DNA of 39,391 bases from a virus (lineage: Duplodnaviria; Heunggongvirae; Uroviricota; Caudoviricetes). The notes below the pieces were generated by a model. That model searched no databases. It had not been told where the DNA came from and saw nothing but the letters and a program-made list of their open reading frames with translations. Location of the stretch: positions 1-39,391 of the IMG/VR virus record IMGVR_UViG_2778261394_000008; one strand, 5' to 3'. This document shows positions 3,637 to 36,466 of the stretch, piece after piece. Position 1 is the stretch's first letter. Every line of letters begins with the position of its first letter. Position numbers and translations under genes: made by a program.

Positions 3637-3681
3637 ATAAACGGTTAGTAAAAAATGGAAGAATTATAGTCTTCTTAATAT

Positions 3682-8775: not shown

Positions 8776-9084
8776 TTACACGAAGCGGATCTGGAGTTTT
8801 TTTCCTGTTGCGCGGGCAAATTTTTTCAGTGTGGAAAATGATGGTCCACTGACACCTGACGCCAGATTACTTTCCATTCTGCTGATGACAGTTGCTTTGG
8901 TTCCCATACGCTCAGCGATCTCAGCCTGGGTTAAACCAGCTTCTTTACGTGCTGCCAGCATTTCATCAAGCAGCGCAAATTCGTCGGCGATGGCGTCGTA
9001 TTCTGCTTTAAAAGCTGGATCCTTCATCCATTTATCAGCCATTTCATCATGTGTAATGGTTAGCGGATTACGTTTACCAGTCAT
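8776..9084 (-). CDS. HTH-type antitoxin (HigA-like, XRE family)
   Basis: 102 aa; HTH (GLTQAEIAERMGTKATVISRME); immediately downstream of, and overlapping, a RelE/ParE-superfamily toxin gene. Confidence 0.8.
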   Translation of the reverse strand: MTGKRNPLTITHDEMADKWMKDPAFKAEYDAIADEFALLDEMLAARKEAGLTQAEIAERMGTKATVISRMESNLASGVSGPSFSTLKKFARATGKKLQIRFV

Positions 9085-9403
9085 GCTTTACCTCCTTCAT
9101 TCTGGTTTCAGCTTTTTGGCGTTCGGCTGGTGGGGTTTTCTGAGTCTTCTTGATGAAACTATGCAGCATGATGATGCGTTTTCCTGCCAGGGTGCAGTAA
9201 AAGACGCGTGCGATGCCATCACTACCTTTAATCCGAAGCTCGAAAAGCCCGTTACCGAAAGCACTGGTATGAGGTTCTCCGAGATTGCTGCCGTATACCT
9301 TCATGCGTTCAACAAGATGCTGGTATCGGGCACGCATACTCAATGGAAGCTGGTCGACCTCCAGCCTGACCTCTTCACTGTAGTATTCGATAGTGTAGTT
9401 CAT
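9074..9403 (-). CDS. RelE/ParE-superfamily toxin (HigB-like / phage Gp49-like)
   Basis: 109 aa; toxin gene precedes the antitoxin (HigBA order); overlaps the antitoxin start by 11 nt. Confidence 0.8.
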   Translation of the reverse strand: MNYTIEYYSEEVRLEVDQLPLSMRARYQHLVERMKVYGSNLGEPHTSAFGNGLFELRIKGSDGIARVFYCTLAGKRIIMLHSFIKKTQKTPPAERQKAETRMKEVKHDW

Positions 9404-9433: not shown

Positions 9434-10087
9434 GCACAATATATTGATTCTGCAATTTCGGGACGTTACACTGTTCCAGCACCTTATAAAGCGGGTGCCG
9501 GGCGTGGAAACCCGAAATTCAATATAGAGCACAACCGCGCTCATGCGGTTTTTTCGTGTCATGAGCATTGCTACGCCCAAATTATGGTGGGGCGTGCAGG
9601 GCCAACTTCGGTTGGGCCGGGTTCTATGTTGACCGGTATTTCCACCCCTGTACGTCTCACCACCTATATGGTCGTGGAAAGCCTTGGTGGTGAGTTCTTT
9701 GAATTCAACATAGGGGCTGTCACCATGACTACCACCACTACCCACCCATTCCTCAAAATTGAGATTATTAACGGTAAGACCGTTATTTTCTCTTTGCATG
9801 TAGCCTGCCATTTCAAGCGCATGCACCAGAACATCGTCGACAAAATCGAGTATCTGAACTGCTCACGCGAGTTTTTTACCCGCAATTTCATACCGGGTAC
9901 TTATCACATCTATGGTGACTCCCTGCGTGGTTATTACATCACCCTTGATGGCCTGATGATGCTTCAGCTTGGGTTAAGTCTGCGCACAATGCGGTACTAC
10001 GAGAGCTGCATTGAAGCATTCCATGAAACTGAAGCCAGTCTCAGTCACACCGCTTTCCGCCGTAATCAATGGGAGGTGCGCCCATGA
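9422..10087 (+). CDS. Hypothetical protein (221 aa; start uncertain)
   Basis: 3' portion of the 507-aa track ORF that does not overlap the antisense TA genes; codon usage looks coding; stop overlaps the start of the next ORF (ATGA at 10084-10087) with GGGAGGTG SD. Confidence 0.4.
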   Translation: MVMFAQYIDSAISGRYTVPAPYKAGAGRGNPKFNIEHNRAHAVFSCHEHCYAQIMVGRAGPTSVGPGSMLTGISTPVRLTTYMVVESLGGEFFEFNIGAVTMTTTTTHPFLKIEIINGKTVIFSLHVACHFKRMHQNIVDKIEYLNCSREFFTRNFIPGTYHIYGDSLRGYYITLDGLMMLQLGLSLRTMRYYESCIEAFHETEASLSHTAFRRNQWEVRP

Positions 10088-13519: not shown

Positions 13520-13762
13520 ATGACTTTTACGCCTGAACAATTACGTAAACAGGCACAGGAAATGTTACGACAGGCGGAACAACTGGAAAAGACAGGCGTA
13601 ACAAAAGATGCCATTCGTAAGGATATGGTGCCAGCGCTCAGGGAACTGATGCAGGCGAAACACCGCGCACAAAAAGCAGTGGATGAGCTGGTGGATTGTG
13701 TGGCAGAGCTGGAAACCAAAGTTGGAAAGTTTGAAAAACTGGTGCAGGAGGTACTGCGCTGA
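13520..13762 (+). CDS. Hypothetical coiled-coil protein (80 aa)
   Basis: Charged helical ORF between the helicase gene and Q; alternative TTG start at 13505. Confidence 0.45.
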
Positions 13763-14145
13763 TGCGTGATATTCAGATGGTTCTTGAGCGTTGGGGAGCG
13801 TGGGCGGCTAATAATCATGAAGATGTGACCTGGTCGTCCGTTGCCGCCGGTTTTAAGGGATTAATTCCTTCAAAAGTAAGATCTCGTCCGCAATGCTGTG
13901 ACGATGACGCGATGATCATTTGTGGATGTATGGCCTGTCTGAAAAAGAGCAACAATGGCTTACATGATTTGCTGGTGGATTATTATGTTGGTGGGATGAC
14001 GTTTATGATGCTGGCGCGGAAGCATAATTGCTCTGATGGGTATATCGGGAAAAGGTTACAGAAAGCAGAGGGAATAATCGAAGGTATGTTAATGGCATTA
14101 GACATTTGCTTAGAGATGGATATTGATGTTACTAAGCTTAATTAA
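13762..14145 (+). CDS. Late-gene antiterminator Q (small Q family as in DLP12-type prophages, recalled similarity)
   Basis: 127 aa, Cys-rich ([15 protein letters not shown]); positioned after the replication genes and before the late region. Confidence 0.7.
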
Positions 14146-14149: not shown

Positions 14150-14325
14150 ATTATTTTTTAATAAAAAATGGGGCGTAAAAACACCCCCAAGATAAAGGGT
14201 AATATATAACAGAAAGTTTAGATAGTAAGAAGCAGGGCTCTAATGCTTCTTAAAGAAGTGGCTTGAGGGAGCCACTTATATGCTGAGAAGATAAAACCTT
14301 CTCAGCATATCCTTTATTAACCAGA
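14150..14325 (-). ncRNA. Candidate IpeX-like structured RNA / terminator cluster in the porin 3' region
   Basis: Three consecutive hairpins between convergent Q and porin genes (14227-14251, 14258-14275, 14280-14308, the last with an 11-bp perfect stem); an sRNA in the nmpC 3' region is known in the DLP12 prophage. Confidence 0.3.
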
Positions 14326-15432
14326 TTAGAACTGGTATACCATACCTACAGCAACGATATCGTCAGTGTTTACACCAAGAGCTTTAGTAAAGTCATTTTT
14401 GTCAAGCAGGTTGATTTTGTAATCAACGAAGGTAGACATATTTTTGTTGAAATAATAAGTTGCGCCAACATCAACATATTTGACTAAATCCTGGTCACCA
14501 AAAATGCCAAGATCTTTACCTTTTGATTGCAGATAAGCAACAGACGGACGCAGACCGAAATCGAACTGATATTGTGCAACAGCTTCGAAGTTTTGTGCTT
14601 TATTAGCCACAAAGTAATCTGCGAATTTAGTCATATTCTGGGTTTCTGAATAGGTTGTTGCCAGATAAACGTTGTTTGCGTCGTATTTCAGACCTGCAGC
14701 CCAGACTTCTGCATTTTCGCCGGAAGCAAATACTCCTGGGAGAAGTTTACCCAATTTGACTTGAGTGTCGGTACGATCAGATTTCGCATACGTTGCACCA
14801 ATGCCGAAACCTTCGTATTCATAGGTCGCAGAGAAACCAAAACCATCGCCATTGCCTTTGGTGTAGTTATCTAAGCTACTACGATCATGATTATTCTTAC
14901 CCTGGTACTGTGCAGCAAAATTCAGACCATCAACCAGACCAAAGAAGTCGTTGTTACGATAAGTTGCAACACCAGTGGTGCGACCAGTCATGAATACATC
15001 TGTTTGGGTCCAGGTATCTCCACCGAATTCTGGCAGAACGTCAGTCCATGCACCGATATCGTATGCTACACCGTAGTTACGACCGTAATCGACGGAGCCG
15101 TAGTCACCGAATTTAAGCCCTGCAAATGCAAGACGGGTTTTATCTTTGGCTGCTCCCTGTTCTTCAGTACGGTTTCCTTTGAATTCATATTCCCACTGAC
15201 CGAAACCAGTCAGTTGATCGTTGATCTGAGTTTCGCCTTTGAAACCCAGACGAGCATAAGTTGTGTCGCCATCATTTGCATCGTTAGAGGAGAAGTAGTG
15301 CTTAGCATTAACTTTTCCGTACAGATCCAACTTGTTGCTGTCTTTATTATAAATCTCTGCTGCCTGAGCAGACATCGCCATCAGTACTGATGCAGCCACA
15401 GCAGAAATTGCCACCGTTAATTTTTTCATCAC
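14326..15432 (-). CDS. nmpC: OmpC/OmpF-family general porin (NmpC/Lc-type prophage porin)
   Basis: 368 aa; signal peptide ending [10 protein letters not shown]; porin signatures throughout and C-terminal aromatic residue (VYQF); encoded antisense to the late operon between Q and the lysis genes. Confidence 0.9.
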
Positions 15433-16286: not shown

Positions 16287-17333
16287 ATGGCTAATACTGT
16301 AAAAATATCCAGTTGTGAGTTAATCAACGCTGATTGCCTGGAATTTATCCGGACCTTACCGGAAAACTCTGTCGATCTGATAGTCACAGACCCGCCATAC
16401 TTTAAAGTGAAGCCCGAGGGCTGGGATAACCAGTGGAAGGGGGACGATGATTACCTGAAATGGCTGGCTCAGTGTCTGGCGCAGTTCTGGCGGGTACTGA
16501 AACCTGCCGGAAGTCTCTACCTGTTCTGTGGTCATCGCCTGGCATCTGATATCGAAATCATGATGCGTGAACGCTTTAATGTGCTGAACCACATTATCTG
16601 GGCGAAGCCGTCCGGACGCTGGAATGGGTGCAACAAGGAAAGCCTGCGGGCGTATTTCCCGGCAACAGAGCGCATTTTGTTTGCCGAACATTATCAGGGG
16701 CCATACCAGCCCAAAAGTGACGGTTATGCAGCAAAGGGGCGCGAGCTTAAGCAGCATGTCATGGCCCCGCTGATTTCTTACTTTCGTGATGCGCGCGAAT
16801 CACTGGGGATAACGTCAAAACAGATAGCAGAAGCCACCGGAAAGAAAAACATGGCTTCGCACTGGTTTGGTACCAGTCAGTGGCAGTTACCGAATGAGGC
16901 CGATTACAGTAAACTGCAGGCGCTGTTTGCACGTGTGGTGGCAGAAAAACACCAGCGCGGTGAACTGGAGCAGCCACACCACCAGCTGGTCAGCACATAC
17001 AGCGAACTGAACCGGCAATATGCCAGCCTGCTGGAGGAATACAAATCACTGCGGCGTTATTTTTCCGTATCGGCTGTCGTTCCTTATACGGATGTCTGGA
17101 CGCACAAGCCCGTGCAGTTTTATCCGGGTAAGCATCCCTGTGAAAAACCGGCGGATATGTTGCGTCAGATAATTACTGCCAGCAGCCGTCCAGGCGATTT
17201 GGTCGCAGATTTTTTTATGGGGTCGGGGTCGACAATAAAAGCGGCACTGTCGCTGGGATGCAGGGCGATTGGCGTGGAACTGGAAGAGGAACGTTTTAAT
17301 CAGACGGTCAGAGAAATAACGAAAGATTTTTAA
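16287..17333 (+). CDS. DNA methyltransferase, beta-class amino-MTase (N6-adenine or N4-cytosine), orphan
   Basis: 348 aa; motif IV DPPY near the N-terminus (IVTDPPYF) and motif I FxGxG near the C-terminus (FFMGSGST); no adjacent restriction endonuclease gene. Confidence 0.85.
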   Translation: MANTVKISSCELINADCLEFIRTLPENSVDLIVTDPPYFKVKPEGWDNQWKGDDDYLKWLAQCLAQFWRVLKPAGSLYLFCGHRLASDIEIMMRERFNVLNHIIWAKPSGRWNGCNKESLRAYFPATERILFAEHYQGPYQPKSDGYAAKGRELKQHVMAPLISYFRDARESLGITSKQIAEATGKKNMASHWFGTSQWQLPNEADYSKLQALFARVVAEKHQRGELEQPHHQLVSTYSELNRQYASLLEEYKSLRRYFSVSAVVPYTDVWTHKPVQFYPGKHPCEKPADMLRQIITASSRPGDLVADFFMGSGSTIKAALSLGCRAIGVELEEERFNQTVREITKDF

Positions 17334-17441
17334 TTCAGTGATGATATAAGTTGTATATTTCTGATACAGATGTATACACATATTTAAAACTGAACACCAA
17401 ATATATTTTTGATGCCCACACAATCATTGTTAGTATTTGTG

Positions 17442-17468
17442 ACGACCTAAAGGTGGTCGTTTTGTGTT
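17442..17468 (+). terminator. Hairpin with interrupted U-tract downstream of the methyltransferase
   Basis: Stem acgacc/ggtcgt, 6-nt loop, followed by tttgtgtt. Confidence 0.4.
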
Positions 17469-17890
17469 CACAGGGTGTTAATACCACCGGAAAGGTCAGT
17501 GCTGACTTCCTGGTGATCAGTTTGTTGATTCAGTAATAACCGGTCAGCAGTGTGATTCCGGAAGTCAGCATTTTATGTGTGAGGGTAATTTCTGCTACCC
17601 GCACTGGTAAACAAATGAGGCATATCGTTTCAGCACTGGCGAGTTTCGCGGAGAACAGGTTTTGCAAGCGCCTTTGTCGTTCTTCATTCTGTAATATCTG
17701 ACTGATTACAGTTTCGGTGCTGTTTTTTACATTGTTAACGTTGTGTATCATCGGATGGTTTTTATCAGAATGAGTCGCTGCCTGTTTCGGGGTCTGTGAT
17801 TCGTCAGAATTACGTTGCAGGCTGACGAATCATTCTGGTAGTAACCATACAATTAAACGCTGTCTAATTCTTATACGATGAATGCTTTGG

Positions 17891-17917
17891 GCCCGTCTCA
17901 TGACGGGCATTTTTTTA
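17891..17917 (+). terminator. Rho-independent terminator
   Basis: gcccgtc-tcat-gacgggc followed by attttttta. Confidence 0.7.
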
Positions 17918-18013
17918 TCCGTGCGCAATGCCTGTTCTGTTATGGCATTTTTCATCTTTTCCCGGTTGGCTATTATTATGGTTTATTTTTCTGTATACAG
18001 GAGAATTGAGACT

Positions 18014-18505
18014 GTGATCACATATGCAGACATTCGGGAAAAGCAGGCTGAAATTCAGGAGGCCAGACAGGAGTACATCCAGCGACTGCGGGATATGGCA
18101 AAAAGGCTGGTCAAGACCTATGAAGACTCACTGGCATTGCCGAAACCACGATGGCTGGATATTGACGGTAACTCCCATCCCTATGTTTATCTTTCTCATG
18201 ATAGTTGTTGTGAGAAACCGGAGGATTTGCAGGTAGATTTTCAGGATGGGGTTACTTTTAATTTATATACGGTTGTTGATGATGATCCCCGCCAGTCTGT
18301 AAGTGTGAATATTACAGTGAGTATTCTGTTACTTGATGGCGACAACATGACGATTTCGGTTGATGGTTATCAGGCCAGGACATTTTCGCATGTGGATACC
18401 AACGCAAAAATTAATGAAGTGTGCGAATACATTAAAGACAGCATACTTATGTCAATGAATGAAGTGACGTTTGGCAAAAAATCCCTTTCAGAAGTGAAAG
18501 GGTAA
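18014..18505 (+). CDS. Hypothetical protein (163 aa), moron-like unit
   Basis: GTG at 18014 preceded by AGGAGA SD (9-nt spacing); the longer track ORF from 17882 would include the terminator hairpin; bracketed by intrinsic terminators. Confidence 0.45.
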   Translation: MITYADIREKQAEIQEARQEYIQRLRDMAKRLVKTYEDSLALPKPRWLDIDGNSHPYVYLSHDSCCEKPEDLQVDFQDGVTFNLYTVVDDDPRQSVSVNITVSILLLDGDNMTISVDGYQARTFSHVDTNAKINEVCEYIKDSILMSMNEVTFGKKSLSEVKG

Positions 18506-18540
18506 ACCAGCTGACACTCCGCTGATTCAGAAAATTATCA

Positions 18541-18565
18541 GGCTGCGCACGTGCGTGGCCTTTTT
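18541..18565 (+). terminator. Rho-independent terminator
   Basis: Stem ggctgcgc/gtgcgtggcc with 4-nt loop, followed by ttttt. Confidence 0.5.
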
Positions 18566-18702
18566 CATATCTGCGCCACGCCCGGCGCACATCAAAAAAC
18601 CACAGAGCCTTTCAGGGGGGAGCTTACGGGATGGTCAGTGTGACTTTCTCTGTGGGCTGCTCATCCCGGGGCGAGGCTCACCCACTAAAAGGAAAAGTCA
18701 CG

Positions 18703-19128
18703 ATGTTTGGTATTTTCAAAAAGAAAACCCGTAAGGCTATTACTGAAGTGAAGAAAATGGAGAACCGCGACGCGGTGGAGGCGACCGTCTGGGGCGCGTA
18801 TTCCATTGCATACGCTGACGACACCTGTGACGCGAAAGAAATTGCGGTACTGGAGAAAACCATTGCAGCACTTCCTGCCTTTGCGCCGTTCTCCGGTGAG
18901 ATTGCCCAGATGAGCGCGAATATCCGCGCCCGTTATGAAGCATCGCCTCGTAGTGCGAATGCTCAGGCTTTGCGAGAACTGGCTGATGTGGCAGGAACCG
19001 CCGAAGCGGTTGATGTGCTGTGCCTGTGTCTGGATATTGCAGACCAGGATGGCATTGGTCCGGATGAAGAAGCACAGCTCAAGAAAATTGCGCAGGCGCT
19101 GCAGTTGCCGCTGGAGCAGTACCTGTGA
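18703..19128 (+). CDS. TerB-like (tellurite-resistance TerB family) protein
   Basis: 141 aa from ATG at 18703 (AGGAAA SD); overall pattern resembles TerB, with two acidic D..D/E segments (AYADDTCDAKE and DIADQDGIGPDEEAQ); assignment from recollection. Confidence 0.55.
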   Translation: MFGIFKKKTRKAITEVKKMENRDAVEATVWGAYSIAYADDTCDAKEIAVLEKTIAALPAFAPFSGEIAQMSANIRARYEASPRSANAQALRELADVAGTAEAVDVLCLCLDIADQDGIGPDEEAQLKKIAQALQLPLEQYL

Positions 19129-19277
19129 AAAGTGCGCGCCTTGTGCTGGCTGCCATCCTGCTGTTTCTGGTAGTGGCAGTGGATTTTACCGGACGGCTGA
19201 TGTCGGTGCTGGCTGATGGCGTGCTGGTGGCGATGGTGATGGTCGTTCTCTGGCCTTTACTGCACAAATATGAATAA
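19125..19277 (+). CDS. Small hydrophobic membrane peptide (50 aa)
   Basis: GTG start overlapping the TerB-like stop (GTGA); almost entirely hydrophobic (LVLAAILLFLVVAVDF...VLVAMVMVVLWPLL). Confidence 0.4.
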   Translation: MKSARLVLAAILLFLVVAVDFTGRLMSVLADGVLVAMVMVVLWPLLHKYE

Positions 19278-19325
19278 CACCAAACAAAAGGCATCTGCGG
19301 GTACCTTTGACAGGGTGTTTTTTAC

Positions 19326-19349
19326 GGGCCGCTGGTGGCCCTTTTTATT
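19326..19349 (+). terminator. Short GC hairpin plus U-tract immediately upstream of the holin gene
   Basis: gggcc-gctggt-ggccc followed by tttttatt. Confidence 0.4.
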
Positions 19350-19364
19350 GACAGGAGAAAAAGT

Positions 19365-19754
19365 ATGTCTGAACCCTTATCCGGTTCCGGCACGGCTGCG
19401 GCGCTCGGTGGGGCGACGGTATTCGGGCTGTTTACCGGAACGGATTTCGGGATTGTGTTTGGTGCATTCGCAGGGGCGCTGTTTGTGGCCACGATACCAC
19501 AGAAGATTTCTGTCTGGCGTGTGGCAGCGCATTTTCTGGTGTCGTTCATTGTTGGCGTGCTGGGGGCGGATGTGATGGCGTCTTACCTGGTTGAAAAACT
19601 GAATCTCCACAGCACATCTCTCGACGCGCTTTGCGCGGTACTGGTATCGGTGGTGTCGGTGAAGATTCTCTCATTCATCCACCAGCAGGATATCGCATCG
19701 CTGGTATCCGGGCTGTTCTCCCGTCTGCGGGGTGGAGGCGGTAATGTTAAGTAA
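19365..19754 (+). CDS. Holin-like membrane protein (lysis cassette gene 1)
   Basis: 129 aa from ATG at 19365 (AGGAGA SD); multiple predicted TM segments; directly upstream of the endolysin. Confidence 0.6.
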   Translation: MSEPLSGSGTAAALGGATVFGLFTGTDFGIVFGAFAGALFVATIPQKISVWRVAAHFLVSFIVGVLGADVMASYLVEKLNLHSTSLDALCAVLVSVVSVKILSFIHQQDIASLVSGLFSRLRGGGGNVK

Positions 19755-20022
19755 CCTTCCCGGATTACTGAATGTGGTGTTAAGCACGGTTATCGTGCTG
19801 ACGCTCTTTTTTTATCGTCGTGGTGAGTCGAGACATAAACCGCTGATGTCGTGGCTGGCCTGGCTGCTGATGCTGCTTTATGCCTTTGCGCCGCTTTGTT
19901 ATCTGTGTGGTCGCTTTCCACCCGGTAACTGGCTGGTCGTCCTGATTAACCTGGTGTTCTGCGTGCTGGTGATACGAGCACGCGGGAACGTATCAAAAAT
20001 CCTTGTATTACGAAGGCGCTGA
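19744..20022 (+). CDS. Second holin/antiholin-like membrane protein
   Basis: 92 aa from ATG at 19744 (GGAGG SD); hydrophobic with a basic C-terminus. Confidence 0.5.
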   Translation: MLSNLPGLLNVVLSTVIVLTLFFYRRGESRHKPLMSWLAWLLMLLYAFAPLCYLCGRFPPGNWLVVLINLVFCVLVIRARGNVSKILVLRRR

Positions 20023-20023
20023 T

Positions 20024-20569
20024 ATGAAGTCGAAAGATGAAATTTTTGACGAAATTCTGGGAAAAGAGGGCGGTTACGTCAATCACCCGGATGATAAAGG
20101 TGGTCCGACTAAATGGGGCATCACTGAAAAAGTTGCCCGTGCACACGGTTATCAGGGCGATATGCGTGACCTGACGCGTGGGCAGGCGCTGGAAATACTC
20201 GAGGCGGACTACTGGTACGGACCACGATTCGACCAGGTTGAGGACCTGTCTCCTGATATTGCCGCAGAGTTGTGCGATACGGGCGTGAACATGGGGCCAA
20301 CTGTGGCGTCCAGAATGCTTCAGCGCTGGCTGAACGTTTTCAACCTGCGCGGGAAACTCTATCCGGATATGGATGCAGATGGACGCATCGGGCCGCGTAC
20401 TCTTAATGCATTACGGGCATATCTGAAAAATCGCAGCAGGGATGGTGAACTGGTACTGGTGAAAGCCCTGAACTGTACGCAGGGCGAGCGTTATCTGGAG
20501 CTGGCAGAGAAACGCGAGGCCAATGAGTCGTTTGTCTATGGCTGGATGAAAGAGCGCGTGGTGGTTTAA
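20024..20569 (+). CDS. Endolysin, glycoside hydrolase family 108 with C-terminal peptidoglycan-binding domain
   Basis: 181 aa; N-terminal GH108 signature (EGGYVNHPDDKGGPTKWGIT). Confidence 0.85.
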   Translation: MKSKDEIFDEILGKEGGYVNHPDDKGGPTKWGITEKVARAHGYQGDMRDLTRGQALEILEADYWYGPRFDQVEDLSPDIAAELCDTGVNMGPTVASRMLQRWLNVFNLRGKLYPDMDADGRIGPRTLNALRAYLKNRSRDGELVLVKALNCTQGERYLELAEKREANESFVYGWMKERVVV

Positions 20570-22521: not shown

Positions 22522-23070
22522 ATGAAGGTTAATAAAAAGAAGCTCGCGGAAATTTTCAACGTGGATCCACGAACGATTGAACGCTGGCAGTCTCAGGGGC
22601 TCTCTTGTGTCTCTGGTGGTAGTAAGGGGGTTGAATCTGTATTTGATACCGCCATGGCAATTCAGTGGTATGCGCAGCGCGAAGCCGATATTGAAAACGA
22701 AAAACTCCGCAAAGAGACCGAGGATTTGCGTGCGGCTGCGGAATCAGATTTACAACCCGGCACCATTGACTATGAGCGCTACCGACTCACAAAAGCACAG
22801 GCTGATGCACAGGAACTGAAAAATGCCCGCGAAGAAGGGCTGGTACTGGAAACGGAATTGTTTACCTTCATTCTGCAACGTGTGGCACAGGAGATTTCGG
22901 GGATACTTGTACGTGTGCCGCTGACATTACAGCGTAAATATCCGGATATTTCACCGTCACACCTTGATGTGGTGAAAACTGAAATCGCAAAAGCCTCCAA
23001 CGTTGCAGCTAAAGCTGGTGAGAACGTAGGCGGGTGGATTGATGATTTCAGACGCACAGAAGGCAGCTAA
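22522..23070 (+). CDS. Nu1: Terminase small subunit (lambda Nu1-like)
   Basis: 182 aa starting [12 protein letters not shown]; recalled strong similarity to lambda gpNu1 including the N-terminal winged HTH. Confidence 0.9.
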
Positions 23071-24958
23071 TGCAGCCGGTGCGATAGCAACAGGGCTTGT
23101 ATCTCTCAATATTCCGGTACCACTGACGACAGTTCAGTGGGCTGATCAGCATTATTATCTGCCAAAAGAGTCTTCATATACTCCCGGGCAATGGGAAACA
23201 CTGCCGTTTCAGGTTGCCATCATGAACAGCATGGGGAATGACCGGATCCGCACCGTTAATCTGATTAAATCGGCGCGTGTTGGTTACACCAAAATGCTGT
23301 TGGGGGTGGAGGCTTATTTTATTGAACACAAATCCCGTAACAGCCTGCTTTTTCAGCCGACAGATTCTGCGGCAGAAGATTTTATGAAATCCCATGTCGA
23401 ACCAACGATAAGAGACGTTCCTGTATTACTGGAGCTGGCTCCGTGGTTTGGCAGAAAACATCGGGACAACACGCTTACCCTGAAACGTTTCTCCTCCGGT
23501 GTGGGATTCTGGTGTCTGGGCGGAGCTGCTGCCAAAAACTACCGTGAAAAATCTGTGGATGTGGTCTGCTATGACGAACTCTCCTCGTTTGAACCGGATG
23601 TGGAAAAAGAAGGTTCACCAACTCTGCTTGGTGATAAGCGTATCGAAGGTTCGGTATGGCCTAAATCCATACGCGGCTCAACGCCCAAAATTAAAGGTTT
23701 TTGCCAGATTGAAAAAGCCGCGAACGAATCTGCACATTTTATGCGGTTTTATGTGCCATGCCCTCATTGTGGTGAAGCCCAGTATCTGAAGTTTGGCGAT
23801 GATGCGACAACCTTTGGCCTGAAATGGGAGAAGGGCAAGCCGGAGACGGTGTATTACCTGTGTGAACATAATGGCTGCGTGATCCGTCAGTCGGAACTTG
23901 ACCATACCGACGGGCGGTGGATTTGTGACAATACCGGGATGTGGACGCGTGACGGTCTGACATTTTACAGCGCCGGTGATGAGGAAATCCCGCCACCGCG
24001 CTCAATCTCGTACCACATCTGGACGGCATACAGCCCGTTCACCACCTGGGTACAGATTGTTTATGACTGGCTTGATGCACTGAAGGATCCGAATGGCGTC
24101 AAGACGTTCATTAACACCACGCTGGGGGAGCCTTATGAAGAGGCTGTGGCAGAAAAACTGAGCTTTGAGTTGTTGCTGGAAAAAGTCTGCCACTATGATG
24201 CGCAGGTTCCCCTGCGGGTGGTTTACCTGACCGCAGGGATCGACTCACAGAAAAACCGTTATGAGATTTATGTCTGGGGCTGGGCTCCCGGCGAAGAAGC
24301 TTTTCTGATTGACAAGCAGATCATCATGGGGAGACCGGAAGATGAGGACACCCTTAAACGCGTTGATGCCGTGATCCGGAAAAAATACCGTCATGCAGAT
24401 GGCACTGAAATTTCCATTTCCCGCGTCTGCTGGGATACCGGTGGTATTGACCAGGACATTGTGTATCAGCGTTCCAGAAAACACGGCACTTTTTTTGTGC
24501 TCCCCATCAAAGGGGCATCGGTGTACGGCAAGCCGGTGATCACCATGCCAAAAAAGCGAAACCAGCGTGGGGTGTTTTTGTGTGAGGTGGGTTCCGATAC
24601 CGTCAAGGAAATGCTGTATGCGCGTTTTGCCCTGCCGGTGGTATCTGCCAGTGAAGCCGCACCGTATACCTTCCGTTTTCCGGATAACCCTGACATTTTT
24701 TCTGATGTTGAAGCTAAACAACTCGTGGCAGAAGAGCTGGTTGAAAAAGTTGTGAACGGGCGGGTGAAACTCCAGTGGGATGCCAGAAAACGGCGTAATG
24801 AAGCTCTGGACTGTCTGGTGTATGCCTATGCAGCGCTGCGCATTTCCGTTCAGCGGTGGCAACTGGATCTGGATGTACTGGCCCGCGCCAGAAGAGATGA
24901 ACAGGACGACGATGAAATGACTATTGAAGAAATCGCGGCTGCTCTGAGTGGAGGATAA
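23042..24958 (+). CDS. A: Terminase large subunit (lambda A-like)
   Basis: About 638 aa; high similarity to lambda gpA along the whole length (e.g. [36 protein letters not shown]). Confidence 0.95.
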
Positions 24959-24961
24959 GTG

Positions 24962-25171
24962 ATGATTTATACGCATGAAATGCTATGCGATGCCCGCCGG
25001 GCGTTACATGAACTGATGATCGGACGTGCTGTGGTTTCCGTCAGCAAGGACGGGCGTCAGGTTCAGTATTCGCGGGCGACAATTGGTGAACTGCGTCAGT
25101 ATATTGAAGAGCTGGAAAGTGCGCTGGGTGTATCCGGACGGCGTCGTGGTCCGGCAGGAGTGGGGCTGTGA
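24962..25171 (+). CDS. W: Head-tail joining protein W
   Basis: 69 aa; GGAGGA SD; similar to lambda gpW (ARRALHELM, RRRGPAG). Confidence 0.85.
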   Translation: MIYTHEMLCDARRALHELMIGRAVVSVSKDGRQVQYSRATIGELRQYIEELESALGVSGRRRGPAGVGL

Positions 25172-26739
25172 ACGGGGAACTGGTGGATATTCATGGGCAG
25201 CCTTTACGGCAAGGCATGGGATATTCTGGTGGTGGTTCCGGGGTCGGTGGGCAAATGGCAGAATGGCTGCCTGCACCGGAAAGTGCCGACGTGGCGCTCT
25301 TACCTTCCATTCATCTGGGTAACGCCCGCGCGGATGATCTGGTCCGTAACAACGGTATTGCATCGAATGCAGTGGAAATTCATAAGGATCATATTGTCGG
25401 GCACATGTTTCGTCTGAGTTACCGTCCCAACTGGCGCTGGCTGGGGATGTCGGAAGCAGATTCACATGCTTTTATTGAAGATGTTGAGGCGGCGTGGATG
25501 GAATACTGCGATCCGGTGTTTGGTACGATGGATGTGGAAGGGCGTCGTTCGTTTACCGAATTCATTCGTGAAGGGGTGGGGGTCCATACGTTTAACGGTG
25601 AAATTTTTGTCCAGCCCGTATGGGATGCGGAATCCACGTCATTATTCCGGACGAAATTCAAAACCATCAGCCCGAAGCGTGTCAGTACACCCGGTTATGG
25701 TACCGGCGATCGTTTTATGCGTGCCGGGGTGGAAATAAACCGACACGGAAAAGCGCTGGCCTACCATGTTCAGGATGATGACTGGCCCGGCTACGGTGTC
25801 AGTAAATGGACACGAATTACGGCAACACTGCCTTCCGGACGACCGGGAATGATCCATGTGTTTCAGCCACAGGAAGACGGGCAGACCCGCGGGGCCAACC
25901 AGTTTTATTCTGTAATGGAGCGTCTCAAGATGCTCGACACACTGCAGGCCACGCAACTGCAGTCGGCGGTGGTTCGCGCCATGTATGCCGCCACGATTGA
26001 ATCCACACTGGATTCGGAAAAAGCGTTTGAATATATCGCCGGGGTGGGAGATGGAGGTAAAAATCCCCTGAACACCATCATGAAAGGCTACGCGCGTTAT
26101 TACGCCACCAATACGGTAAAACTGGGCGGGGTCCGTATTCCGCATCTTTACCCGGGAGATTCACTGAATCTGCAGACAGCCCAGAATGCGGATAATGGTT
26201 TTTCTGAACTGGAAAAGGCGCTGTTACGTTACATTGCTGCCGGACTGGGTGTGTCGTATGAGCAGCTTTCCCGGGATTATTCACAGGTCAGTTATTCCAG
26301 TGCCAGGGCATCCGCCAATGAGTCGTGGCGGTATTTTATGGGAAAACGAAAATTTGTGGCCAGTCGCCTGGCGTCACAGATGTTTGCCTGCTGGCTGGAG
26401 GAAGCCCTTATTCGTGGTGTGATCCGTCCGCCGAAATCCCGTTTCTCATTCTGGGAGGCCCGTTCCGGGTGGTGCCGTGCCGAGTGGATTGGTGCCGGTC
26501 GTATGGCGATTGATGGTCTTAAGGAAGTGCAGGAAGCGGTGATGCGCATTGAAGGCGGCCTGAGTACATACGAGAAAGAGCTGGCCCTGATGGGGGATGA
26601 CTATCAGGAGATTTTCCGCCAGCAGCTACGGGAAACTCAGGAGCGACAGGCTGCCGGTCTTCCGCGTCCGGTCTGGATAAAGGACGCGTTTCAACAGCAG
26701 ATCCGACAGACAACGGGAGAAAAAGGCGATGCGCTGTAA
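25168..26739 (+). CDS. B: Portal protein (lambda B-like)
   Basis: 523 aa, GTG start overlapping the W stop; similarity to lambda gpB throughout. Confidence 0.93.
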   Translation: MNGELVDIHGQPLRQGMGYSGGGSGVGGQMAEWLPAPESADVALLPSIHLGNARADDLVRNNGIASNAVEIHKDHIVGHMFRLSYRPNWRWLGMSEADSHAFIEDVEAAWMEYCDPVFGTMDVEGRRSFTEFIREGVGVHTFNGEIFVQPVWDAESTSLFRTKFKTISPKRVSTPGYGTGDRFMRAGVEINRHGKALAYHVQDDDWPGYGVSKWTRITATLPSGRPGMIHVFQPQEDGQTRGANQFYSVMERLKMLDTLQATQLQSAVVRAMYAATIESTLDSEKAFEYIAGVGDGGKNPLNTIMKGYARYYATNTVKLGGVRIPHLYPGDSLNLQTAQNADNGFSELEKALLRYIAAGLGVSYEQLSRDYSQVSYSSARASANESWRYFMGKRKFVASRLASQMFACWLEEALIRGVIRPPKSRFSFWEARSGWCRAEWIGAGRMAIDGLKEVQEAVMRIEGGLSTYEKELALMGDDYQEIFRQQLRETQERQAAGLPRPVWIKDAFQQQIRQTTGEKGDAL

Positions 26740-28345
26740 TTTATCACATATTGCCGCGATGGCATTTAATGAGCCGCTTTTACTGGAACCCGCCTATGCG
26801 CGGGTTTTCTTTTGCGCACTGGGTAAGGAGATGGGGGCGGGCAGCCTTGCCGTTCCGCAGCAGGCCGTTCAGCTTGATGCCGATGGTATGCAGCTGGCGG
26901 TTACCGATTATATGACTGGTGGTCCGCGTCCGGTAAAGAGTTACCAGGTGAAAAATGGTATTGCCATTCTGCCGGTGAGCGGCACGCTGGTACATAAAAT
27001 GGGTACCCTGCGGCCATATTCCGGTATGACCGGTTATGACGGTCTGACTGCCCGTCTTAAGTCAGCGGTGAACGACCCGGATGTACGCGGCATTTTACTG
27101 GATATCGACAGTCCGGGCGGTCAGGCTGCCGGGGCGTTTGACTGTGCTGACATGATTTACCGTCTGCGGGAACAGAAGCCCGTGTGGGCGCTGTGTAATG
27201 ACATGGCCTGTTCAGCCGCCATGTTGCTGGCGGCGGCCTGTACGCGTCGGCTGGTCACGCAGACGGCAAAAATTGGTTCGATTGGTGTGATGATGGCGCA
27301 CACCAGTTACGAGAAACAACTGGCACAGGAAGGCGTGGATATCACGCTGATTTACTCCGGGCAGCACAAGGTTGACGGCAACAGTATTCAGGCGTTGCCG
27401 ACAGGTGTGCGTGCGGATTTTCAGCGCCGTATTGATGAGGCCCGCCGGATGTTTGTCGACAAGGTGGCACTTTATACGGGGCTGAGTTCAGAGGTGGTGA
27501 TGAATACCGAGGCTGCCGTTTATGACGGTCAGGCAGGCATTGATACAGGCCTGGCTGATCAACTGATTAATGCTGCAGATGCCGTTGATGTAATGGTTTC
27601 TGCTCTGAACGACTCTGTTACACAGGAGAATACGATGACAACAAAAAATCTCACCGTTGCTGAAGCGGTGTCCCAGGAAAATCAGCGCGTGATGGGGATC
27701 CTGAATTGTCAGGAGGCGAAAGGACGCGAAAAACTGGCGCAGATGCTGGCAGGTCAGCAGGGAATGTCAGTTGAGCAGGCAAAAACATTACTGGCGGCAG
27801 CACCGGTTGCCGGTACTGACAGCACAGGCGATCAGATTATGGCACTTCCGGAAGCAAAAGGGCGTGAACAACTGGCACGGACGCTGGCTGAACAGCCGGG
27901 AATGACGGTGGAGCAGGCGAAAACGTTACTGGCAGCGGCACCGGTTTCCGGTGCGGCAAGTACCGGCGAGCAGATTATGGCACTTTCGGAAGCAAAAGGG
28001 CGTGAACAACTCGCACAGGCGCTGGCTGAACAGCCGGGAATGACGGTGGAACAGGCGAAAATGCTACTGGTAGCGGCACCGGCAACCGGTACGGCAAGTA
28101 CCGGCGATCAGATTATTGCGTTGCCGGAAGCAAAAGGACGCGAACAACTGGCACAGGCGCTGGCTGAACAGCCGGGAATGACAGTGGAGCGGGCGAAAAC
28201 GCTGCTGGCAGCTGCGCCATCAGTATCGCAACCGTCACAGGTAACACTTTTTGAGCGCTTCATGGCACAGCATGCCGCCAGTGCCGTTTCCGGTGGCGGA
28301 ACTGCCGGGAACGGGGAAGAAGAACTGCTGATGAGTATGCCGTAA
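26729..28345 (+). CDS. C: Head maturation protease / minor capsid protein C (S49-like) with C-terminal scaffold region
   Basis: 538 aa; N-terminal half similar to lambda gpC (HIAAMAFNEPLLLEPAYARVFFCAL); C-terminal part contains tandem repeats. Confidence 0.9.
   Translation: MRCNLSHIAAMAFNEPLLLEPAYARVFFCALGKEMGAGSLAVPQQAVQLDADGMQLAVTDYMTGGPRPVKSYQVKNGIAILPVSGTLVHKMGTLRPYSGMTGYDGLTARLKSAVNDPDVRGILLDIDSPGGQAAGAFDCADMIYRLREQKPVWALCNDMACSAAMLLAAACTRRLVTQTAKIGSIGVMMAHTSYEKQLAQEGVDITLIYSGQHKVDGNSIQALPTGVRADFQRRIDEARRMFVDKVALYTGLSSEVVMNTEAAVYDGQAGIDTGLADQLINAADAVDVMVSALNDSVTQENTMTTKNLTVAEAVSQENQRVMGILNCQEAKGREKLAQMLAGQQGMSVEQAKTLLAAAPVAGTDSTGDQIMALPEAKGREQLARTLAEQPGMTVEQAKTLLAAAPVSGAASTGEQIMALSEAKGREQLAQALAEQPGMTVEQAKMLLVAAPATGTASTGDQIIALPEAKGREQLAQALAEQPGMTVERAKTLLAAAPSVSQPSQVTLFERFMAQHAASAVSGGGTAGNGEEELLMSMP
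27636..28345 (+). CDS. Nu3: Nested in-frame scaffold protein (Nu3-like) from an internal start within C
   Basis: Internal ATG at 27636 preceded by AGGAGA SD, in the same frame as C, as in the lambda C/Nu3 arrangement. Confidence 0.55.
27711..28230 (+). repeat. Tandem ~138-bp in-frame repeats (about 3.7 copies) within the C/Nu3 coding region
   Basis: Repeated peptide unit EAKGREQLAQALAEQPGMTVEQAKTLLAAAPxxGxxSTGDQIMAL, read directly from the sequence. Confidence 0.75.
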
Positions 28346-28385
28346 GCGGGGATCCGTGATTCAGATAAATCAGGAGACTGAGAAA

Positions 28386-28721
28386 ATGATTAAAACCACC
28401 ACAGAAAAGCGCGCGGACGGGCGCATTTTTGCCGGAAGCGATCCGGTGTATACCGCAACAGGTACCAGTGGTATCAGTGTTGCCACGCCTTCACTGACGC
28501 CACTGATGCTGGATGACGCCAGCGGAAAACTGGTGGCATGGGATGGTCAGAAAGCCGGAACGGCTGTGGGGGTGCTGGCACTGGCGCTGGCCGGGACCGA
28601 GCCCGTACTGACGTACTACAAAAGTGGTACGTTTGCCACCGAATCGCTGGTCTGGCCGGATTCGGTGGATGCGGTGAAAAAAGCCAACGCGTTTGTGGGA
28701 AGTGCCATCAGCCACGCCTGA
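28386..28721 (+). CDS. D: Head decoration protein D
   Basis: 111 aa; similar to lambda gpD (TPLMLD, KLVAWDG, YKSGTF). Confidence 0.9.
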   Translation: MIKTTTEKRADGRIFAGSDPVYTATGTSGISVATPSLTPLMLDDASGKLVAWDGQKAGTAVGVLALALAGTEPVLTYYKSGTFATESLVWPDSVDAVKKANAFVGSAISHA

Positions 28722-28743
28722 TGGTGAAGTGATTAACTGAAAA

Positions 28744-28775
28744 AACGGGTCGAGATACGGCCCGTTTGTGTTTTT
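28744..28775 (+). terminator. Hairpin plus T-rich tract between D and E (possible attenuator)
   Basis: Stem aacggg..cccgtt followed by tgtgttttt. Confidence 0.35.
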
Positions 28776-28790
28776 AAAGGAAAGTCAATT

Positions 28791-29819
28791 ATGGGGTTAT
28801 TTACCACGCGTCAGTTGCTCGGCTACACCGAGCAGAAAGTGAAATTCCGTGCGCTGTTTCTGGAGCTGTTTTTTCGTCGTACGGTCACTTTCCATACTCA
28901 GGAAGTGATGCTGGATAAAATCACCGGAAAAACACCGGTTGCGGCATATGTGTCTCCGGTTGTGTCAGGTAAGGTACTGCGCAGTCGTGGTGGTGAAACC
29001 CGCGTGTTACGCCCCGGCTATGTTAAACCAAAACACCGGCTGGATTATCAGCAGGCGGTGGAGCGTCTTCCGGGGGAAGATCCGGCCCGTCTTAATGACC
29101 CGGCCTACCGTCGCCTGCGTATTCTGACTGACAACCTGAAACAGGAAGAACAGGCGATTGTGCAGGTGGAAGAAATGCAGGCGGTCAGCGCTGTTCTGCA
29201 GGGTAAGTACACCATGAGCGGTGAACAGTTTGAGACGGTGGAAGTGGATTTTGGACGTTCTGCCGCCAATAACATTACGCAGGCAGGGGGACGCGAATGG
29301 TCAAAACAGAATGCTGACACCTTTGATCCGACGCATGATCTGGATGCGTACTGCGATTTTGCTTCCGGTACCATCAATATTGCGATTATGGACGGTACTG
29401 TCTGGCGTATGCTGAACGGTTTTAAACTGTTTCGTGAAAAACTGGATACCCGCCGTGGCTCAAAATCTGAACTGGAAACCGCGCTGAAAGATCTGGGGTC
29501 CGTGGTTTCTTTTAAAGGTTATTACGGTGATCTGGCCATCATGGTGGCGAAAACAACGTATGTTGATGAAAACGGGGATGAGCAGCGTTATCTGCCGGAA
29601 GGCACACTGATTCTTGGAAACACTCAGGTGGAGGGTGTCCGTTGTTATGGCGCAATCCAGGATAACCAGGCGCTGAGTGAAGGGATCACCTCTGCAATTC
29701 GTTATCCGAAACACTGGTTAGAGGTGGGGGACCCGGGGTGCGAATATACCATGACGCAGTCTGCGCCGTTGATGGTGTTGCCGGATCCGGACGCGTTTGT
29801 GGTGGTTCAGGTGAAATAA
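28791..29819 (+). CDS. E: Major capsid protein E
   Basis: 342 aa; strong similarity to lambda gpE. Confidence 0.95.
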   Translation: MGLFTTRQLLGYTEQKVKFRALFLELFFRRTVTFHTQEVMLDKITGKTPVAAYVSPVVSGKVLRSRGGETRVLRPGYVKPKHRLDYQQAVERLPGEDPARLNDPAYRRLRILTDNLKQEEQAIVQVEEMQAVSAVLQGKYTMSGEQFETVEVDFGRSAANNITQAGGREWSKQNADTFDPTHDLDAYCDFASGTINIAIMDGTVWRMLNGFKLFREKLDTRRGSKSELETALKDLGSVVSFKGYYGDLAIMVAKTTYVDENGDEQRYLPEGTLILGNTQVEGVRCYGAIQDNQALSEGITSAIRYPKHWLEVGDPGCEYTMTQSAPLMVLPDPDAFVVVQVK

Positions 29820-29824
29820 GGTCA

Positions 29825-29850
29825 GGCGGGATATTCCCGCCTTTTTCTTT
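29825..29850 (+). terminator. Rho-independent terminator-like hairpin after E
   Basis: ggcggga-tat-tcccgcc followed by tttttcttt. Confidence 0.55.
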
Positions 29851-29869
29851 ATCGCACAGGAGAGATGTG

Positions 29870-30250
29870 ATGACAAAAGAAGAAATAACAGCGCGTCTTC
29901 AGGAGCTGGCGGCAGTACTCGGGCGCGATGCCGATATTTCAGGCTCTAAAGCTGATCTTGAACAACGCCTGGCGGAGTGGGAAGAAGAATTAAGTGATGG
30001 TTCAGACGGCCTGTATAAGGATGATGAAGAACCACAACAAAAAAACGAAACACGATCCGAACGTGGGGAGAGTGAGAACCGAAATTCTGTGGATATGGTC
30101 ATGGTCAAAGCTGTGGTGATGTTACATGTCAATGCACTCCACGCCACACGGGATAACCCCGTGGCATTTGTACGTCCGGGAGAAGTGTTTCGTGTATCTG
30201 CCGTGGTGGCAGCCAGCATGGCAGAAAGTGGCCTCGTGAAAATGTGTTGA
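29870..30250 (+). CDS. FI: DNA packaging/head protein FI
   Basis: 126 aa from internal ATG (AGGAGAG SD); similar to lambda gpFI (MTKEEITARL, HVNALHATRDNPVAFV). Confidence 0.85.
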   Translation: MTKEEITARLQELAAVLGRDADISGSKADLEQRLAEWEEELSDGSDGLYKDDEEPQQKNETRSERGESENRNSVDMVMVKAVVMLHVNALHATRDNPVAFVRPGEVFRVSAVVAASMAESGLVKMC

Positions 30251-30263
30251 ATGTGGGGGAAAG

Positions 30264-30638
30264 GTGGCAGATTTCGATAATCCGTTTGATGCCGCCGTCG
30301 CCATGGCTGACGAGGTCATTCTTTGTCATATGGGGATTACGGCGGTAATTACGTCCGGTCAGCTTGAAGGAAAAACACTCAGGGGTGTTTTTGATGATCC
30401 TGAAAAAATTTCGTTCGTTGCCGGAGGAGTACGGTTTGAAGATTCTTCACCGTCTTTGTTTGTGAAAACAGCAGATATTACGGGACTGCGCCGTCTGGAT
30501 ACGCTGGAGGTTGGTGGGGATCTTTTTCGGGTGGATCGCATTACTCCGGACGACGGGGGATGCTGTTATATCCGCCTGCAACGGTGTGACAGTTCCCGGG
30601 GTGATATCAGTACGGGGCGATATTATGAAAGGTCTTGA
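30264..30638 (+). CDS. FII: Head-tail connector protein FII
   Basis: 124 aa, GTG start; N-terminus MADFDNPFDAA as in lambda gpFII. Confidence 0.85.
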   Translation: MADFDNPFDAAVAMADEVILCHMGITAVITSGQLEGKTLRGVFDDPEKISFVAGGVRFEDSSPSLFVKTADITGLRRLDTLEVGGDLFRVDRITPDDGGCCYIRLQRCDSSRGDISTGRYYERS

Positions 30639-31203
30639 AAACGCCATCCGTAATCTGGACATCCTTGATACCCGTATGGTGCCACAGGCCAGCGCCTGGG
30701 CAATAAATCGTGTGGCACAGAAAGCCATTTCTCAGGCTACCCGACAGGTTGCCCGCGATACCGTAGCCGGTGATAACCAGGTGAAGGGGATCCCCCTGAA
30801 ACTGGTACGTCAGCGTGTCCGGGTGTTTAAAGCCAGTCCGTCAGGAAAAATGACGGCCAGGATCCGCGTTAACCGGGGCAATCTGCCCGCCATTAAGCTG
30901 GGGGCTGCACAGGTCAGAATGACCCGGCGTGGTGGCAGGTTACATTACCGTGGCAGTGTGCTGAAAGTGGGAAAATATCTTTTCCGGAATGCCTTTGTCC
31001 AGCAACTGGCGAACGGTCGCTGGCATGTGATGCGGCGTATTGACGGCAAAAATCGTTACCCCATTGATGTGGTGAAAATTCCGCTGTCCGGTCCGCTGAC
31101 ACAGGCATTTGAGGATGCCCGTAAAAGCGTCATTGATAACGAGATGCCGAAACAGCTGGGGTATGCCCTGAAACAACAACTGAGGTCATATCTGAACCTA
31201 TGA
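30625..31203 (+). CDS. Z: Tail completion protein Z
   Basis: 192 aa from ATG at 30625 (MKGLENAIRNL); overlaps FII 3' end; similar to lambda gpZ. Confidence 0.85.
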   Translation: MKGLENAIRNLDILDTRMVPQASAWAINRVAQKAISQATRQVARDTVAGDNQVKGIPLKLVRQRVRVFKASPSGKMTARIRVNRGNLPAIKLGAAQVRMTRRGGRLHYRGSVLKVGKYLFRNAFVQQLANGRWHVMRRIDGKNRYPIDVVKIPLSGPLTQAFEDARKSVIDNEMPKQLGYALKQQLRSYLNL

Positions 31204-31601
31204 ACCGACACACACAAATTCGTCAGGCCGTATTGTCGCGCCTGAAAACGACGTGCGGGGAGAAGACCGTCCTGTTTGACGGCCTTCCTGCCTTTATTGA
31301 TGCGCAGGAGCTGCCTGCTGTGGCGGTGTGGCTGAGTGATGCACAGTACACCGGAAAAATGACGGATGAGGATGACTGGCTGGCAGTTCTGCATGTCGCC
31401 GTCTTTATCCGTGCACAGGCACCGGATTCTGATCTGGATACGTGGATGGACAACATTATTTACCCGGCACTGGAGGATATTCCGGCGCTTTACGGCCTTA
31501 TCGATACCATGATCCCACGGGGATTTAACTATCAGCGTGATAACGATATGGCAACATGGGCGATGGCGGAAATCACGTATCAAATCACATATACAAATTA
31601 A
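31200..31601 (+). CDS. U: Tail terminator protein U
   Basis: 133 aa; ATGA overlap with the Z stop; similar to lambda gpU. Confidence 0.9.
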   Translation: MNRHTQIRQAVLSRLKTTCGEKTVLFDGLPAFIDAQELPAVAVWLSDAQYTGKMTDEDDWLAVLHVAVFIRAQAPDSDLDTWMDNIIYPALEDIPALYGLIDTMIPRGFNYQRDNDMATWAMAEITYQITYTN

Positions 31602-31611
31602 GGGGTGGGAA

Positions 31612-32352: not shown

Positions 32353-32370
32353 CCTGGCAGTCTGTTTTTT

Positions 32371-32393
32371 ACCCCGGTATGCCGGGGTTTTTT
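32371..32393 (+). terminator. Rho-independent terminator-like hairpin after V
   Basis: accccgg-tatg-ccggggt followed by tttttt. Confidence 0.55.
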
Positions 32394-32408
32394 GTTTACG
32401 GAGGGGAC

Positions 32409-36457: not shown

Positions 36458-36466
36458 GGAGGACGG

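Follow-up and report, generated by a model that had tools for sequence, protein, structure and literature searches.

The 39,391-nt window analysed here, which is the whole of IMG/VR virus record IMGVR_UViG_2778261394_000008 (Caudoviricetes), matches the chromosome of Escherichia coli EC11 (NZ_CP027255.1), an isolate from cow dung, at 100% identity and constitutes a lambdoid prophage adjoining potAB. Between a DNA methyltransferase (MTase) gene and a TerB-like gene in its late region lies an open reading frame (ORF) of 163 codons, which is the subject of this study and is read here as the gene of a probable moron unit. A first reading of the letters (hereafter the original prediction) had picked out this frame as a gene of unrecognised family bracketed by intrinsic terminators. 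The GTG start, the length of 163 amino acids and the Shine-Dalgarno (SD) motif AGGAGA that it had described were all found where it had placed them. The frame and its flanking signals are as follows.

17891–17917, plus strand: strong intrinsic terminator (stem 17891–17908, T-run 17910–17916)
17927–17952, plus strand: at the unit's left edge, hairpin AATGCC...GGCATT with TTTTT after it, weak at −7.2 kcal/mol and z −1.1 (not significant)
17949–17979, plus strand: candidate sigma-70 promoter (−35 TTTTCA at 17949–17954, 16-nt spacer, −10 TATTAT at 17971–17976)
17978–17980, plus strand: alternative in-frame ATG, 12 codons upstream, giving 175 amino acids, with no SD motif in the window
17999–18004, plus strand: SD motif AGGAGA, 9 nt before the GTG
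18014–18505, plus strand: coding sequence of the phrog_5091 family, 163 codons plus stop, from GTG 18014–18016 to TAA 18503–18505
18540–18566, plus strand: intrinsic terminator of the unit, at its joint with the TerB module (stem 18540–18561, T-run 18562–18566)

The coding sequence and its start codon

The 163-codon ORF is a real protein-coding gene under purifying selection. The ratio of nonsynonymous to synonymous substitution rates (dN/dS) between divergent alleles is 0.12–0.28 in all pairs with measurable dS. The product matches phrog_5091 (PHROGs v4, function unknown) with an E-value of 2.6e-42 and 145 bits, residues 1–154 aligning with positions 2–161 of the 164 in the profile. The differences in the gene body fall on codon positions 1/2/3 as 173/139/291 and 252/167/350 in two independent groups, with the excess of third-position substitutions that is expected for coding sequence. 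The ORF is intact in 30 loci.

The RefSeq (PGAP) annotation of EC11 starts the gene at ATG 17900, giving 201 amino acids and placing the start within the upstream terminator hairpin, and RefSeq lengths for other strains are 173, 183, 187, 194 and 209 amino acids. The start at GTG 18014 is favoured over the 201-residue one, because the homologous position is Met (or GTG) over about 90 family members, including every protein called with an extension of 11–14 residues; because a purine-rich SD-like block stands at the same place in all relatives (AAGAGGA, GGAAGGA, GAGAGA, AAGGAAG, GGAGAAAGG); because the 33–36 nt upstream of the start show no codon periodicity (49/61/68 and 40/45/47 differences at positions 1/2/3 in two independent groups); and because an in-frame ATG upstream is altogether lacking in a P2-type homologue. 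The family has the N-terminal consensus M-[ST]-[IV]-T-Y, the phrog_5091 profile begins exactly at the GTG residue, and a Xenorhabdus homologue matches the profile (E 3.4e-33) from its own residue 1. The inconsistent RefSeq start calls can thus be corrected.

An in-frame ATG nevertheless lies 11–13 codons upstream of the start in every locus sharing the leader, at spacings of 33, 36 or 39 nt, and it coincides with the end of the −10-like hexamer described below. In the window, this ATG at 17978 would precede the 5′ end of any transcript from the candidate promoter. The stretch from there to the start codon (17978–18013, and the same place in L022–L033) is more conserved than the protein body, yet aperiodic; it is possible that it holds dual translational starts or a regulatory leader.

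Terminators and edges of the unit

The two flanking terminators are both present as originally predicted. The upstream hairpin, GCCCGTC-tcat-GACGGGC followed by ATTTTTTT with seven T, has seven pairs, six of them G-C, and folds with −16 kcal/mol (z −2.7 against shuffles). The downstream one, AGGCTGCGC-acgt-GCGTGGCCT followed by TTTTT, has nine pairs and −16.6 kcal/mol (z −3.3 against shuffles). Both rank in the top four terminator-like sites of the 14–23 kb region, which holds 28 such sites versus 9.5 ± 3.3 in shuffles. The upstream terminator, however, does not belong to the unit. As the 77%-identical E. coli alleles are homologous to the window only from about 17944 onwards, this terminator closes the upstream module of the methylase and a lost tRNA gene, outside the conserved unit. 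Relatives carry a different hairpin, ACCGCCACACCTGGCGGT plus T8, at the same distance (−106 nt).

The left edge itself is occupied in relatives of the L004, L010, L011 and L018 type by a G+C-rich terminator, AGGCTCGCTACGGCGGGCCT/TTTTCATA, at −66. This left-edge hairpin, GGCTCGCTACGGCGGGCC-TTTTTCAT plus a T-run, resembles the terminator 3′ of the gene, and the weak hairpin at 17927–17952 in the window is a decayed version of it. At the right edge, sliding identity steps up at about 18550, from 52–88% within the gene to 86–100% in the TerB module. Phage PPyecE_EH1910 becomes homologous to the window at 18561, immediately past a different terminator hairpin, and in L022 the same type of hairpin stands 3′ of the gene although the next gene is a holin gene instead of TerB. 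The unit is thus exchanged as a block with joints at terminators, its right edge being the terminator.

The terminators were surveyed in 33 further loci taken from complete E. coli genomes, IMG/VR, species-representative genomes and phage records, three of the loci coming from a sub-alignment contig search. By a simple terminator rule, a terminator-like site is present no more than 100 nt past the stop codon in every one of the 30 intact loci. The same strand of these loci has a background of 0.12 such sites per 100 nt, so that the downstream terminator is present beyond chance. At least four unrelated hairpin sequences occupy this position, and among variants of the window-type hairpin 97% of cells stay paired, though solely via one-sided G-U changes. 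A terminator within 200 nt upstream is found in 20 of the 30 loci. An Rfam search of 17300–19300 at E ≤1 gave only a chance terminator-like match.

The 3′ end of the gene also contains a minus-strand hairpin (18483–18502), CCCTTTCACTTCTGAAAGGG and then ATTTTTT. It has the form of a terminator for transcripts running antisense, and relatives do not conserve it.

A candidate promoter

The original prediction named no promoter; the candidate listed above was identified in the present analysis. A second TATTAT overlaps its −10 element at 17974–17979. Both TTTTCA and TATTAT are invariant over six E. coli loci, while the spacer varies. Across 15 distinct family loci a −10-like hexamer with invariant A2 and T6 is found 31–37 nt before the start, with a mean promoter score of 7.5 versus a background of 4.0 ± 1.4, and the distant group shows an extended −10 TG. 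The element is plausibly the unit's own promoter. A reading of CTGTATACAG (17992–18001) as a LexA box was rejected for its wrong spacing and lack of conservation.

Distribution and mobility

The gene is present in about 27 of 5426 complete E. coli genomes, no standard strain being among these carriers, and the TerB leader in at least 165. Over the complete genomes the alleles split into two copies of the window allele, about 25 of the main allele and one of the L023 type. The G+C content of the gene is 42.7% (43.9% at third codon positions), versus 51–55% (55–61%) for the MTase, TerB, holin and endolysin genes. Together with its terminator and conserved leader, the gene turns up at different late-operon positions of different phages, as listed below (L numbers designate surveyed loci).

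Q or methylase to lysis genes: the window, L002–L018, L022, L028, L029, L032 and phage CharmingMan; L035 is also entered here
Directly after a DUF1133 antiterminator-like gene: L005
Lysis genes to terminase: L023
Tail assembly chaperone to tape measure gene, contractile-tail phage: L026, L030
Among baseplate or tail genes: L031, L033
Beside the portal gene, P2-type phages: L034

No partner gene is conserved across the examined loci. In phage PPyecE_EH1910, a RelE/helix-turn-helix (HTH) toxin-antitoxin pair fills the slot before the same TerB leader. The moron architecture that had been proposed is thereby borne out, for the protein family as a whole, on several counts, namely the terminator after the gene in 30 of 30 loci, the conserved −10-like element, the deviant base composition, presence or absence between neighbours and the occupation of several slots. 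The distribution, a check proposed with it, shows an extra gene that is rare in E. coli genomes, occupies at least four different slots and is replaced by other cargo in PPyecE_EH1910.

In L029, a Xenorhabdus-type contig, a gene for a PixA inclusion-body protein (3156–3698; PF12306, E 1.9e-32) stands between Q and the phrog_5091 gene, as a further cargo gene of that region.

Family and predicted structure of the product

The statement that the protein has no recognised family holds for the curated libraries and fails for PHROGs, of which family phrog_5091 it is a sequence member. No Pfam family matches the protein and none is shared among 93 relatives; NCBIfam gives only sub-threshold TraQ matches, located in the non-coding extension. 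The phrog_5091 family ranges over Enterobacterales phages. A word-indexed search of 5.8 billion proteins returned 19 clusters, from E. coli, Salmonella and Citrobacter only, and an exhaustive profile search of 1.84 billion representatives returned 105 clusters (50% identity) at E ≤0.001. The clusters are almost all single-domain proteins of 155–185 amino acids, and the database name of every member is 'hypothetical protein'. As the family is unannotated, membership is uninformative on mechanism. Positions conserved in the family are Y36, S39, L40, W47, Y57, T86 and K141, together with the motifs TV(V/I)DDxPR, a loop at residues 86–93, and EVCxxIKD, at residues 135–142.

The protein is 18.7 kDa with an isoelectric point of 4.7, and has no hydrophobic or transmembrane segment. 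Structure prediction, proposed earlier as a check, gave a confident fold: the AlphaFold model from a 93-sequence alignment has a predicted local distance difference test (pLDDT) score of 92.7 and a predicted template modelling (pTM) score of 0.84. In the model, a 36-residue N-terminal helix is followed by an antiparallel sheet of about eight strands and a C-terminal helix, with both helices packed on one face of the sheet. Structural comparisons returned the actin-capping protein subunits (scores 6.8 and 6.2), Med17 (6.4), P1 DarA (6.1) and type III secretion chaperones (about 5), at 6–12% identity throughout. The theme common to these neighbours is a helix-on-sheet module that binds or dimerises with other proteins; the FP (Fbxo7/PI31) dimerisation domain and the subunit fold of actin-capping protein (CapZ) are among the closest known systems. 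Assignment as a type III secretion class I chaperone was rejected, the alpha-beta3-alpha-beta2-alpha fold with good superposition not being found. There was no enzyme-like structural match and no catalytic signature. Searches of the Protein Data Bank with the single protein and with the 93-member profile gave no match, Foldseek against the BFVD viral structures gave nothing at E < 0.1, and PADLOC-DB 2.0 gave only a chance-level match (E 0.016).

The proposed unit

Taken jointly, we consider it probable that the stretch from about 17944 to 18566 is a self-contained moron unit, that its gene is real and that the product binds another protein. The unit would consist of a weak sigma-70-type promoter, a leader of about 30 nt with an SD motif, the GTG-initiated gene of 163 codons and an intrinsic terminator, and would stand directly upstream of a second cargo pair, the TerB-like and DUF3927/TciB-like genes. 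In the lysogen, transcription would start from the unit's own weak promoter and end at 18562–18566. During lytic growth, Q-modified RNA polymerase from pR′ would pass the terminators at 17891–17917 and 18540–18566, as in lambda; both steps are modelled on lambda biology. From its fold and context, the soluble acidic product is predicted to act alone by binding another protein, probably as a dimer.

Several observations weigh against this proposal. The candidate promoter matches 9 of 12 positions, which by itself is not above chance (8 promoter-like sites in the region versus 14.7 expected), and the −35 elements are weak family-wide. The conserved upstream motif can also be read as an SD motif plus ATG (AGGTGAT-N3-ATG in Xenorhabdus/Yersinia-type loci), so that a longer isoform or dual starts are possible in loci having the upstream in-frame ATG. 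Compensatory covariation in the terminator stem was looked for and rejected, there being zero double compensatory changes, and the retained pairing cannot be told apart from that in shuffles. Premature stops have made pseudogenes of L019 and L020, out of about 32 loci, and many genes of the host prophage carry frameshift annotation. Finally, no family member matches the PADLOC defence models, four distant homologues included.

Alternative explanations

A first alternative, which we regard as unlikely, is that the gene is an ordinary late passenger without a promoter, expressed only via Q-modified polymerase from pR′. The terminators would then be relics of mosaic module joints, and the upstream motif a ribosome-binding site and ATG for a 175-residue isoform or for dual starts. 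The weakness of the promoter match suits this explanation, as does the presence, in distant loci, of SD-like AGGTGAT or GAGGT 3–7 nt before the upstream in-frame ATG, whose spacing to the start is always a multiple of three and stop-free. The TerB leader, moreover, is preceded by a terminator even with different cargo, identity breaking at the hairpin, and an upstream terminator that silences the gene outside antitermination, as could be the case in the 20 of 30 loci, would be compatible with it. However, the extension lacks codon periodicity in both independent groups and is absent from the P2-type homologue, and Met is conserved at the canonical position even in proteins called with the extension. 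In the window, the upstream SD motif (the counterpart of AGGTGAT) has decayed to TTGGCT, whereas the GTG has AGGAGA. The fixed −10-like hexamer with its invariant A2 and T6 would also be left unexplained.

It is rather improbable that the gene and its TerB-like and DUF3927/TciB-like neighbours function as one three-gene cargo module. The three are adjacent in all E. coli lambdoid loci seen, and also in the free phage CharmingMan, whose homologue is only 30% identical. Yet a terminator separates the gene from TerB in every case; the gene is found without TerB in L022, L023 and L026–L034, and conversely PPyecE_EH1910 and at least 140 E. coli genomes have TerB and its leader but lack the gene. 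A divergent allele of the gene (dS ≥1) can also stand beside a TerB module that is 90–98% identical.

Very improbable is a long, membrane-anchored product of 201 (ATG 17900) or 187 (ATG 17942) amino acids with a hydrophobic N-terminal segment, VMAFFIFSRLAIIMVYFSV. The frame stays open over the 44 codons preceding the GTG, VMAFFIFSRLAIIMVYFSV has a mean hydropathy of 2.16 over 19 residues, and PGAP and other callers often extend the gene. We rejected this form along with the PGAP start, given that ATG 17900 falls within the terminator hairpin, that relatives are unrelated upstream of about 17944 with wholly different in-frame translations between loci, that PGAP itself gives four lengths over five loci, and that the family N-terminus with its conserved Met lies at the GTG. 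That the frame is a decaying, non-functional ORF of a defective prophage is scarcely credible, for all that the gene is rare, that two related loci have premature stops and that many structural genes of the prophage are annotated as frameshifted, when set against the low dN/dS, the 30 intact loci, a family of about 105 clusters and the confident predicted fold.

The surrounding prophage

The neighbouring genes, with strand where recorded, are listed below.

13762–14145: Q antiterminator gene
14326–15429, minus strand: ompC-like porin gene, between Q and the late genes
Between the porin and MTase genes: 198-bp ORF
16287–17333: DNA MTase gene
18703–19128: TerB-like gene
19125–19277: DUF3927/TciB-like gene
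19335–20569: two holin genes and a GH108 endolysin gene

The terminase and structural genes follow the endolysin gene. The 163-codon gene thus sits in a variable cargo slot of the late region, from Q to the lysis genes, and the late-operon position originally assigned to it is confirmed by the Q gene before it and the holin and endolysin genes after it. This is the same slot that carries tRNA genes and stx in Shiga toxin (Stx) phages.

The 680 nt between the MTase gene and the target frame are without a called gene. Relatives have tRNA genes just upstream of the gene: in E. coli strain C5 a tRNA-Gly gene lies between the methylase and the gene (L003, 4743–4814), and tRNA-Thr/Gly or Ile/Arg occur at this place in other relatives, as in Stx phages. 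ARAGORN found zero tRNA genes in the whole window, and at about 17540–17615 only a tRNA 3′ end, CACCCGC, is retained.

The ompC-like porin gene is a second cargo gene, coding for a lysogenic-conversion porin and equipped with terminators of its own. Late transcription from pR′ would have to pass through it antisense, and hairpins lie near it at 14170–14187 (minus strand) and 14278–14310 (plus strand). In the early region, RefSeq annotates a RelE/ParE-family toxin and an HTH antitoxin on the minus strand at about 8776–9337. Two Rfam matches above the gathering score, to the isrK Hfq-binding RNA (61.6 bits; 9479–9555, plus strand) and the C4 antisense RNA (82.4 bits; 9580–9667, plus strand), fall inside or beside a region annotated as 'ash family protein', and this part of the early region looks like an antirepressor control module of the P1/P7 type.

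The genes that RefSeq marks as frameshifted in EC11 (about 23040–38700) are those for the terminase large subunit, portal, major capsid, gpG/T, tape measure, L, K, I and J. The calls could reflect either prophage decay or homopolymer errors in the assembly; copies of the TerB leader likewise differ in homopolymer length.

The TerB leader

A leader of about 137 nt (18566–18702) runs from the gene's terminator to the TerB start codon. It is 94–98% identical in PPyecE_EH1910, where the TerB coding sequence is only about 40–60% identical, and 82–86% identical in phage CharmingMan. Predicted nested helices give it a fold of −48.9 kcal/mol (z −2.1), and a G-run (about 18618–18623) and a C-run vary in length between copies. 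The leader had no Rfam match. It may be a regulatory leader RNA or the promoter region for the TerB/TciB pair. Beyond this pair, a terminator-like hairpin, GGGCCGCTGGTGGCCC followed by TTTTT (19326–19341, plus strand), directly precedes and overlaps the start of the first holin gene. Pas small RNAs of enteropathogenic E. coli prophages have been linked to TerB-containing regions and are neighbours of holin/lysozyme operons (bioRxiv 10.64898/2026.05.13.724894; PMC8550237). This hairpin, or one of the other terminators here, may be the 3′ end of such an RNA.

Comparison with known systems and implications

Morons are where temperate phages hold genes that change the host, such as those for toxins, exclusion and defence. 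Juhala et al., in 2000, and Hendrix et al. are said to have defined the term for lambdoid phages; examples are lambda bor and lom, HK97 gp15, and stx in the Q-to-S slot of Stx phages. The present unit resembles them in being an extra gene between conserved late genes, with a putative promoter, an intrinsic terminator and a deviant composition, and in that some relatives have it while others lack it or carry a replacement. With Stx phages it shares the Q-to-lysis slot, the carrier slot of Shiga toxin, as well as the tRNA genes just upstream in relatives. In contrast, the protein is unrelated to characterised moron products, being cytoplasmic and acidic and neither an envelope protein nor a toxin.

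A second comparison is offered by the cos-proximal defence hotspot of P2-like phages, between gpA and gpQ, whose cargo includes old, tin and others (Rousset et al. 2022, PMC9122126). Four P2-type phage records have a 28%-identical homologue of the protein immediately next to gpQ, the portal gene. Unlike in the hotspot as described, the neighbours in the record examined are ParM/StbB partition genes, with no recognised defence genes.

The original suggestion of virulence, exclusion or defence functions is a guess. Because of the usual cargo of these slots and, as a weak and circumstantial hint, the distant homologue in the P2-type cos-proximal region, we would guess, with less than even confidence, that the role of the gene is in phage-phage or phage-host conflict, as superinfection exclusion or defence, counter-defence being less likely. 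More specifically, and only tentatively, phrog_5091 may be a single-protein conflict system, in which a binder expressed in the lysogen would block superinfecting phages or neutralise a host or prophage defence. Its promoter-gene-terminator cassette would then move between the cargo slots of lambdoid, Mu/P2-type and other Enterobacterales temperate phages, including the P2-type cos-proximal hotspot.

The architecture itself is ordinary and already known, and the value of the finding hangs on what the protein does. What the unit adds is a compact, confidently folding family of about 105 clusters without a Pfam entry or a solved relative. Since it behaves as a one-gene cassette that can be moved as such, it lends itself readily to cloning and to screens by phage challenge.

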